Shown here in pieces: positions 58,481 to 58,771 of a stretch of DNA of 64,000 nucleotides (positions within the stretch are counted from its first letter, which is position 1; the number at the start of each line of letters is the position of its first letter). The stretch is taken from NCBI GenBank assembly GCA_018821535.1, contig JAHJLV010000016.1, positions 116,010 to 180,009 of the forward strand, in the 5' to 3' direction. The stretch comes from Pseudomonadota bacterium (GTDB lineage: Bacteria; Desulfobacterota; Desulfobacteria; Desulfobacterales; Desulfobacteraceae). The position numbers and the translations under genes are program-made. The notes beneath the pieces are model-generated. The model was given only the letters and a program-made list of their open reading frames with translations, searched no databases and was not told where the DNA came from.

Positions 58481-58771
58481 ATGGAAGATTTAAGATATCT
58501 GGATGATGTATCCACCCTGGTGCTTGACCAGGAAAAATGTATCGGATGCACCCTGTGTACCCAGGTGTGTCCCCAAAGTGTATTTGAAATGCAGGGAAAC
58601 AAGTCTCAAATTGTAGATTTTAACGCCTGCATGGAATGCGGGGCCTGTGTAAATAACTGCCCGACCCAGGCCATCCGGGTCAGCCCGGGGGTTGGCTGAG
58701 CAGCCTATATTATCCAGGTCTGGATAAAGGGAAAAGAAAATGCAACCTGCGGCGATGGGAGGTGCTGCTAA
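58481..58771 (+). CDS. hgcB: Mercury methylation ferredoxin HgcB, probable selenoprotein (UGA at 58697-58699 read as Sec73)
   Basis: Two CxxCxxCxxxC motifs including CMECGAC; the frame continues past PGVG-UGA as AAYIIQVWIKGKENATCGDGRCC* (96 aa total, terminal CC). Confidence 0.9.
58704..58730 (+). other. Bacterial SECIS-like hairpin
   Basis: TTATCCAG-GT-CTGGATAA perfect stem starting 11 nt after the UGA, extended by CCT/AGG; apical AGGUCU resembles the E. coli fdhF SECIS. Confidence 0.8.

Follow-up and report, generated by a model that had tools for sequence, protein, structure and literature searches.

The hgcAB locus

The window analyzed here, a stretch of 64,000 nucleotides from a Desulfobacula genome of 4.43 Mb (98% complete), contains a mercury methylation locus in which an HMA metallochaperone gene, hgcA, hgcB and an arsC-like gene follow one another on the same strand (Table 1). 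Upstream of these genes we found a sigma-54 activator and, on the opposite strand, a PsiE-family gene. The cap-helix motif of HgcA reads GVNVWCAA and fits the pattern N(V/I)WCA(A/G/S). After a gap of 15 nt follows hgcB, whose product has two CxxCxxCxxxCP [4Fe-4S] motifs, including C(M/I)EC(G/S)(A/G)C (CIGCTLCTQVCP and CMECGACVNNCP). In NCBIfam the HMA gene matches best to CopZ-family chaperones, at 58.7 bits, and to MerP, at 40.1 bits; none of these scores reaches its curated cut-off. The arsC-like gene starts 1 nt past the hgcB stop and its Shine-Dalgarno sequence, GGGAGGTG (58757-58764), is situated within the hgcB tail; the gene looks translationally coupled to hgcB.

Table 1. Location of the features discussed in the text. 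Positions refer to the window unless a contig is named.
Feature	Position	Strand	Description
HMA (CopZ/MerP-like) metallochaperone gene	57050..57262	+	GMTCGHC motif; 27 nt upstream of hgcA
hgcA	57290..58465	+	corrinoid/membrane protein of mercury methylation; NF040863, 428 bits (cut-off 275)
hgcB, full length	58481..58771	+	96 codons + TAA; 2x[4Fe-4S] ferredoxin, predicted Sec73, C-terminal Cys-Cys
UGA, codon 73, in frame	58697..58699	+	interpreted as selenocysteine; TGT/TGC in Cys-type homologs
Putative SECIS	58704..58731	+	lower helix 58704-58706 / 58729-58731; upper 7-bp stem 58710-58716 / 58721-58727; loop GGUC 58717-58720
Cys-Cys codons TGC TGC and true stop TAA	58763..58771	+	CC-stop preserved in nearly all relatives
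Thioredoxin-type arsC-like gene	58773..59207	+	TIGR02691, 157.7 bits (below cut-off 174.3)
selD with in-frame TGA	contig C67:1553-2470		
Fused FdhA	contig C17, position 37594 of reverse complement	-	U in CARL-U-HS; TIGR01591, 875 bits
CoA-disulfide-reductase-like flavoprotein	contig C58, position 64011 of reverse complement	-	U at redox Cys; family search

An in-frame UGA in hgcB

Read with translation table 11, the hgcB open reading frame (58481-58699) terminates at ...VSPGVG-TGA and encodes 72 amino acids. When TGA is translated as U, the frame extends by 23 codons, U73-AAYIIQVWIKGKENATCGDGRCC, to a TAA at 58769-58771; our direct reading agrees on this point with a first-pass annotation of the sequence, which had described a frame running on past PGVG to a terminal CC-TAA. 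The read-through HgcB, with Cys substituted for Sec, scores 124.5 bits against NCBIfam model NF040864 (curated cut-off 99 bits) and covers profile positions 1-93 of 93, while the 72-aa truncation reaches 102 bits over positions 1-68 of 93 and is barely above the cut-off. The deposited product for this gene in public collections is the 72-aa truncation, just as the first-pass annotation had expected of standard gene callers.

The GVG-U73 motif is found about 12 residues past the second cluster motif and aligns with the GVG-C of homologs, and CC stands at the C-terminus. The placement of the UGA at the conserved cysteine of GVGC, also proposed earlier, is thus borne out by the TGT or TGC present at codon 73 of Cys-type homologs. 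The Desulfobacula protein resembles the known Cys-type HgcB in its two CxxCxxCxxxCP motifs, in the conserved residue 73 that opens a C-terminal helical extension, in the flexible tail with a Cys-Cys end and in the location of its gene directly 3' of hgcA. It differs in having UGA/Sec rather than TGY/Cys at position 73, and in an mRNA hairpin within codons 75-84, which Cys-type genes do not have.

Distribution of the UGA codon among relatives

Among the 60 relatives searched, hgcB was complete and contained a single in-frame TGA in 30 of the 36 genomes belonging to the genus, as well as in one genome from another family; 12 other genomes of the order carry a stop-free hgcB. This TGA occupies codon 73 in each of the 31 Sec-type genomes. 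Codon 73 is TGT or TGC in the 11 readable of the 12 stop-free homologs, and the same holds for Cys-type sequences overall (about 54-55 unique sequences). Among 80 named loci from GTDB genomes, the Sec form extends to MAGs labelled Desulfotignum, Desulfobacter, Desulfamplus and Desulfobacterium, and it is carried by the isolate Desulfocicer vacuolatum DSM 3385. At least 56 distinct hgcB genes of one Desulfobacteraceae clade have TGA at codon 73. On a tree of 106 HgcA sequences, all 53 Sec-type loci fall in one clade (SH-aLRT 99), which indicates a probable single origin of Sec-HgcB in Desulfobacteraceae for the sampled sequences.

The peptide encoded 3' of the UGA is conserved as A[AS]YIIQVWIKG[KE]E[NK]A[ST]CG...CC-stop, and codons 83-91, outside the hairpin, use two to five synonymous codons each. 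A conserved tail peptide combined with free synonymous variation is the signature of a translated sequence. The first-pass annotation had kept open the possibilities of a nonsense pseudogene and of a sequencing error. The TGA recurs in 30 of 36 genus genomes and in 56 distinct genes from many independent assemblies, which rules out both a sequencing error and a nonsense mutation private to this genome; the tail evolves as coding sequence.

The true terminator after Cys-Cys is also TGA in 26 of 31 Sec-type hgcB genes (loci L023-L049), 22-26 codons past the Sec UGA. In such genes the hairpin is the sole mark that distinguishes the Sec UGA from the terminator UGA. In one MAG (locus L046, genome G018) a further TGA replaces the penultimate Cys codon, so that the end of the gene reads GGA TGA TGC TGA where relatives have GGG TGC TGC TGA. 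This second TGA is not followed by a hairpin and probably reflects an error or a nonsense change private to this MAG; a second Sec codon is less likely.

A putative SECIS element in hgcB

The hgcB mRNA can form a hairpin in which TTATCCA pairs with TGGATAA over 7 bp around a GGUC tetraloop (GGTC in the DNA), flanked by a 3-bp lower helix, CCU/GGG. Alternatively, the same hairpin may be described as 6 bp with an AGGUCU hexaloop. An 8-bp perfect stem with apical AGGUCU, beginning 11 nt downstream of the UGA, had been proposed in the first-pass annotation. The start at 11 nt stands; the proposed stem and loop mix the two descriptions, because an 8+8 inverted repeat would leave a loop of 2 nt. The first G of the loop is at +21 from the U of the UGA. 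The hairpin thus sits shortly 3' of the UGA and has a G in its apical loop, as is expected of a bacterial SECIS, and it is predicted to bind SelB.

The folding energy of the single hairpin is no different from that of shuffled sequences (z = 0.53). Because single-sequence energy does not go beyond chance, the hairpin needs comparative support, and its significance comes from conservation. Across the 56 distinct Sec-type genes, codons 76-82 show a synonymous entropy of 0.21 bits versus a median of 1.07 and rank first, that is lowest, among 73 windows; the same window in 55 Cys-type genes has a value of 1.07 and ranks 10 of 73. These codons, TAT ATT ATC CAG GTN TGG ATA, are invariant at the nucleotide level across the 56 genes with two exceptions; the variation within them consists of a rare TAC at codon 76 and of changes at bases 2 and 3 of codon 80, which form loop bases 3 and 4. 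The resulting loops in Sec-type hgcB are GGUC/U/G/A, with GGGC in two. The three Ile codons of the stem are each fixed on a different codon, precisely those that form the stem, while Ile codons elsewhere in Sec-type hgcB, and those at the same positions in the 55 Cys-type genes, vary freely. Such suppression of synonymous change over the seven hairpin codons indicates a constraint acting at the level of RNA.

Pair counting over 41 distinct sequences found 99.5% of cells paired, with an invariant upper stem and a lower helix in which changes are one-sided and only wobble-compatible. No compensatory double changes were detected in these 41 sequences; covariation is absent because the stem never varies. 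A search against Rfam, at gathering thresholds and at E<=10, matched no SECIS or other relevant family.

Two further selenoprotein genes of the same genome offer a comparison. The genes for FdhA (formate dehydrogenase alpha) and for a CoA-disulfide-reductase-like flavoprotein both have SECIS apices of the form GCC-GGUCU-GGC; the loop opens with a G at +22 in the former and at +25 in the latter, close to the +21 of hgcB. The fdhA element is, like that of hgcB, a hairpin within the coding sequence right after the UGA with an apical GGUC(U), and the fdhF SECIS of E. coli is comparable in both respects. In contrast to FdhA-type elements, the stem in hgcB is rich in A and U, its 7 bp contain no mismatch, and no bulged U is evident.

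A related stem was observed in a Cys-type gene from another family of the order (locus L052, genome G047), which has TGT at codon 73. The stem segments ATT ATC CAG and TGG ATA are present there and the loop is GUCC, with Ser in place of Val. The HgcA of this locus falls just outside the Sec clade on the HgcA tree, and its hairpin could be either a pre-existing precursor of the SECIS or the result of a reversion.

Selenocysteine machinery and genetic code

The genome contains the complete set of genes that the first-pass annotation had asked for as a check: selC (tRNA-Sec, 76.9 bits, anticodon TCA), selB (343 bits), selA (603 bits) and selD (366 bits, with its own in-frame TGA), all above curated cut-offs. 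TGA terminates 626 of 2003 long open reading frames (31%; frames of at least 300 codons). Genome-wide reassignment of TGA can be ruled out, as it is an ordinary stop elsewhere, and with a standard code local recoding is needed at UGA73. A de novo scan of the genome for TGA followed by a hairpin was too noisy for listing the selenoproteome; we kept FdhA, the CoA-disulfide-reductase-like protein and SelD only, and the first two were verified by family search.

Proposed selenocysteine insertion at UGA73 and other explanations

We consider it very probable (about 0.93) that in this Desulfobacula genome hgcB truly encodes a selenoprotein, an HgcB of 96 residues with Sec at UGA73. The insertion of Sec is what we infer from three observations, namely a recoding signature in hgcB, the conservation of that signature and a Sec machinery encoded in the same genome; our literature search for experimental proof of Sec in HgcB by 75Se labelling or peptide mass spectrometry found none. 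At UGA73 of a translating ribosome, SelB-GTP with Sec-tRNA(Sec) would bind the mRNA hairpin at 58704-58731, Sec would be inserted, and translation would proceed through 23 codons up to the C-terminal Cys-Cys. The resulting protein of 96 residues would then act as the ferredoxin partner of HgcA. In it, a selenol would take the place of the thiol that is essential and strictly conserved at residue 73, where the C-terminal helical extension begins, and might provide a softer and more nucleophilic ligand that binds Hg more strongly and exchanges it faster. Shortage of selenium would be expected to yield an inactive 72-aa product.

Published work on the HgcB of strain ND132 describes residue 73 as strictly conserved, and a C73A substitution abolishes methylation in vivo (cited in PMC7305189). 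In a co-evolution-based model of HgcAB, the C-terminal helical extension starts with residue 73, at a distance of about 13 Å from cluster B, and the flexible Cys94/Cys95 tail is within reach of it and was proposed to pass Hg(II) or CH3Hg+ there (PMC7305189, PMC11588087).

If UGA73 were instead a true stop, hgcB would be a nonsense pseudogene or would encode a functional 72-residue ferredoxin lacking Cys73 and the Cys-Cys tail. Such termination is what table 11 predicts and what the 72-aa entry in public collections reflects, and the 72-aa piece just passes the HgcB model (102 versus 99 bits), yet it is hard to reconcile with a TGA and a 23-codon tail that are kept in 56 distinct genes with conserved amino acids and varying synonymous sites, with a tail that ends in CC and a stop, and with the presence of the Sec machinery. 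Moreover, going by the C73A phenotype of ND132 (PMC7305189), an HgcB cut short before residue 73 should have no activity, yet the hgcAB pair persists throughout the clade. We rejected the nonsense pseudogene since a stop common to 56 distinct genes is not private and a tail under purifying selection has not lost its constraint. Overall, a true stop at UGA73 appears exceedingly improbable.

We also considered that Sec may not be the outcome, or not the sole outcome, of recoding at UGA73. Read-through could insert Cys or Trp, or the codon could serve as a selenium-sensing switch in which the choice between termination and Sec insertion sets the level of active HgcB. Bacterial Sec insertion is usually less than fully efficient, and the arsC-like start 1 nt past the true stop means that downstream expression could couple to read-through. 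Decoding by another route is very unlikely given the conserved SelB-type hairpin, whose loop is the same as that of FdhA in this genome and points to the canonical Sec pathway, and no sign of another recoding system was seen. The switch is compatible with Sec insertion at UGA73 and hence not a true alternative to it.

Relation to published Sec-HgcB

Sec-HgcB is already known: it was predicted and published in 2022-23, including this very sequence type, and is modelled as NF040864, in line with the remark in the first-pass annotation that the class was not wholly new. Haft & Gwadz (bioRxiv 10.1101/2022.07.06.499078; J Bacteriol 2023) reported Sec at residue 73, in a GVGU motif, and hence selenoprotein status for 17 of 266 HgcB sequences (6.4%). 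The top rows of their Supplemental Figure 8 display the Desulfobacula type, ...FNACMECGACVNNCP...GVGU[AS/AA]YIIQVWIK, with WP_250697400.1 as exemplar and truncated RefSeq relatives alongside. A 2026 review has the entry "HgcB, NF040864, GVGU", and a biochemical HgcAB paper from 2024 (PMC11588087) cites the Sec-HgcB prediction. Sec73, the GVGU motif, the ..YIIQVWIK.. tail and truncation by gene callers are shared between the published sequences and ours, so the Desulfobacula gene is another ortholog in which nothing essential is different. The main text of the Haft & Gwadz preprint, however, has no SECIS description for HgcB, while here the element is delimited and has synonymous-site support. 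Our contribution is confirmation in one genome, the extent and apparent single origin of the Desulfobacteraceae Sec clade, and a delimited putative SECIS.

The N-terminal pair of HgcA

Most HgcA proteins have an N-terminal Cys-Sec (or Cys-Cys) pair, and most are CU selenoproteins according to Haft & Gwadz. In contrast, the N-terminal extension of HgcA in the window lacks both Cys and Sec ahead of the EKPGY motif (5' end, 57290-57430), and a TAA at 57260-57262 closes the hgcA frame upstream. Among unique loci (L020-L143), a CC or CU pair was found in HgcA at 42 of 44 loci with Cys73-HgcB versus 7 of 48 with Sec73-HgcB, an association that is phylogenetically confounded because the Sec clade represents one origin. 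Parsimony places 7 changes of the pair in the Sec clade (tree length 13.6) versus 2 elsewhere (about 32), with motif states assigned by a simple rule on a quick tree. These distributions suggest that constraint on the HgcA pair may have relaxed after HgcB gained Sec.

A lineage-specific and rather doubtful extension of this idea is that, within the Desulfobacteraceae Sec73 clade, the HgcA pair became dispensable and was repeatedly lost. If this were true, the hand-off of Hg(II) would be rewired, with the HgcB selenol taking over the role of the N-terminal metal site of HgcA, and the operon-encoded HMA chaperone may also contribute in some Desulfobacula.

As a general rule, replacement of the HgcA CC/CU pair by Sec73 of HgcB was rejected. 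Natronincola peptidivorans and two metagenome contigs, which represent an independent lineage in Firmicutes, keep both, having GVGU in HgcB and a CU motif in HgcA. The Natronincola HgcB (FOHU01000005.1, GVGUAYAI..) is like the Desulfobacula protein in its UGA at the GVG-Cys position, and the deposited Firmicutes products are similarly cut to about 70-71 aa under a generic 4Fe-4S name. The two groups differ in lineage, in the sequence downstream of the UGA and its predicted fold, and in HgcA, which has an N-terminal Cys-Sec in Natronincola and none in Desulfobacula. Both genes of the Natronincola isolate (locus L148) are apparently mis-annotated: an ..NSCU.. extension of hgcA lies upstream, within the gene as called or ahead of it, and the hgcB entry is a "4Fe-4S dicluster domain-containing protein" of 71 aa that ends at GVG-TGA. 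A pattern search of metagenome contigs for the independent Sec-HgcB lineage returned only contigs too short to show hgcA.

Ecological significance

In brackish and marine waters deficient in oxygen, Desulfobacula-type bacteria belong to the most abundant carriers of hgcAB, and Desulfobacula hgc genes are strongly expressed in euxinic water of the Baltic Sea (PMC7536318, PMC9494745). By analogy with the C73A phenotype of ND132, as cited in PMC7305189, it would be reasonable to infer that methylmercury production in this organism depends on selenium supply, a consequence the first-pass annotation had also drawn. If HgcB does need Sec at an essential position, methylmercury formation by the Desulfobacula-type guild would be tied to selenium availability. 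Surveys based on called proteins would meet a truncated HgcB without Cys73 and the Cys-Cys tail, as in the 72-aa database entry. Sec-HgcB is now modelled in the NCBI annotation pipeline, and the value of the present case is that of a confirmed, ecologically relevant instance rather than a discovery.

Gene neighborhood in related genomes

Among 50 loci of the Sec clade, 10 have an HMA gene ahead of hgcA, versus none among 49 Cys-type loci, and arsC is found downstream of hgcB in 10 of 61 Sec-type loci. We ruled out these neighbors as parts of a conserved system because they occur in a minority of loci only.

One near-complete genome of the same genus (G034, two contigs) is without hgcAB. Its locus L063 (1983-2467, minus strand) has an HMA gene and, directly 3' of it, a remnant of hgcB that reads ..SSGVG-TGA-AAYIIQVWIKGKENASCGDRGCC. 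It looks as if a deletion took out hgcA and most of hgcB in this genome, leaving the HMA gene next to the end of hgcB.
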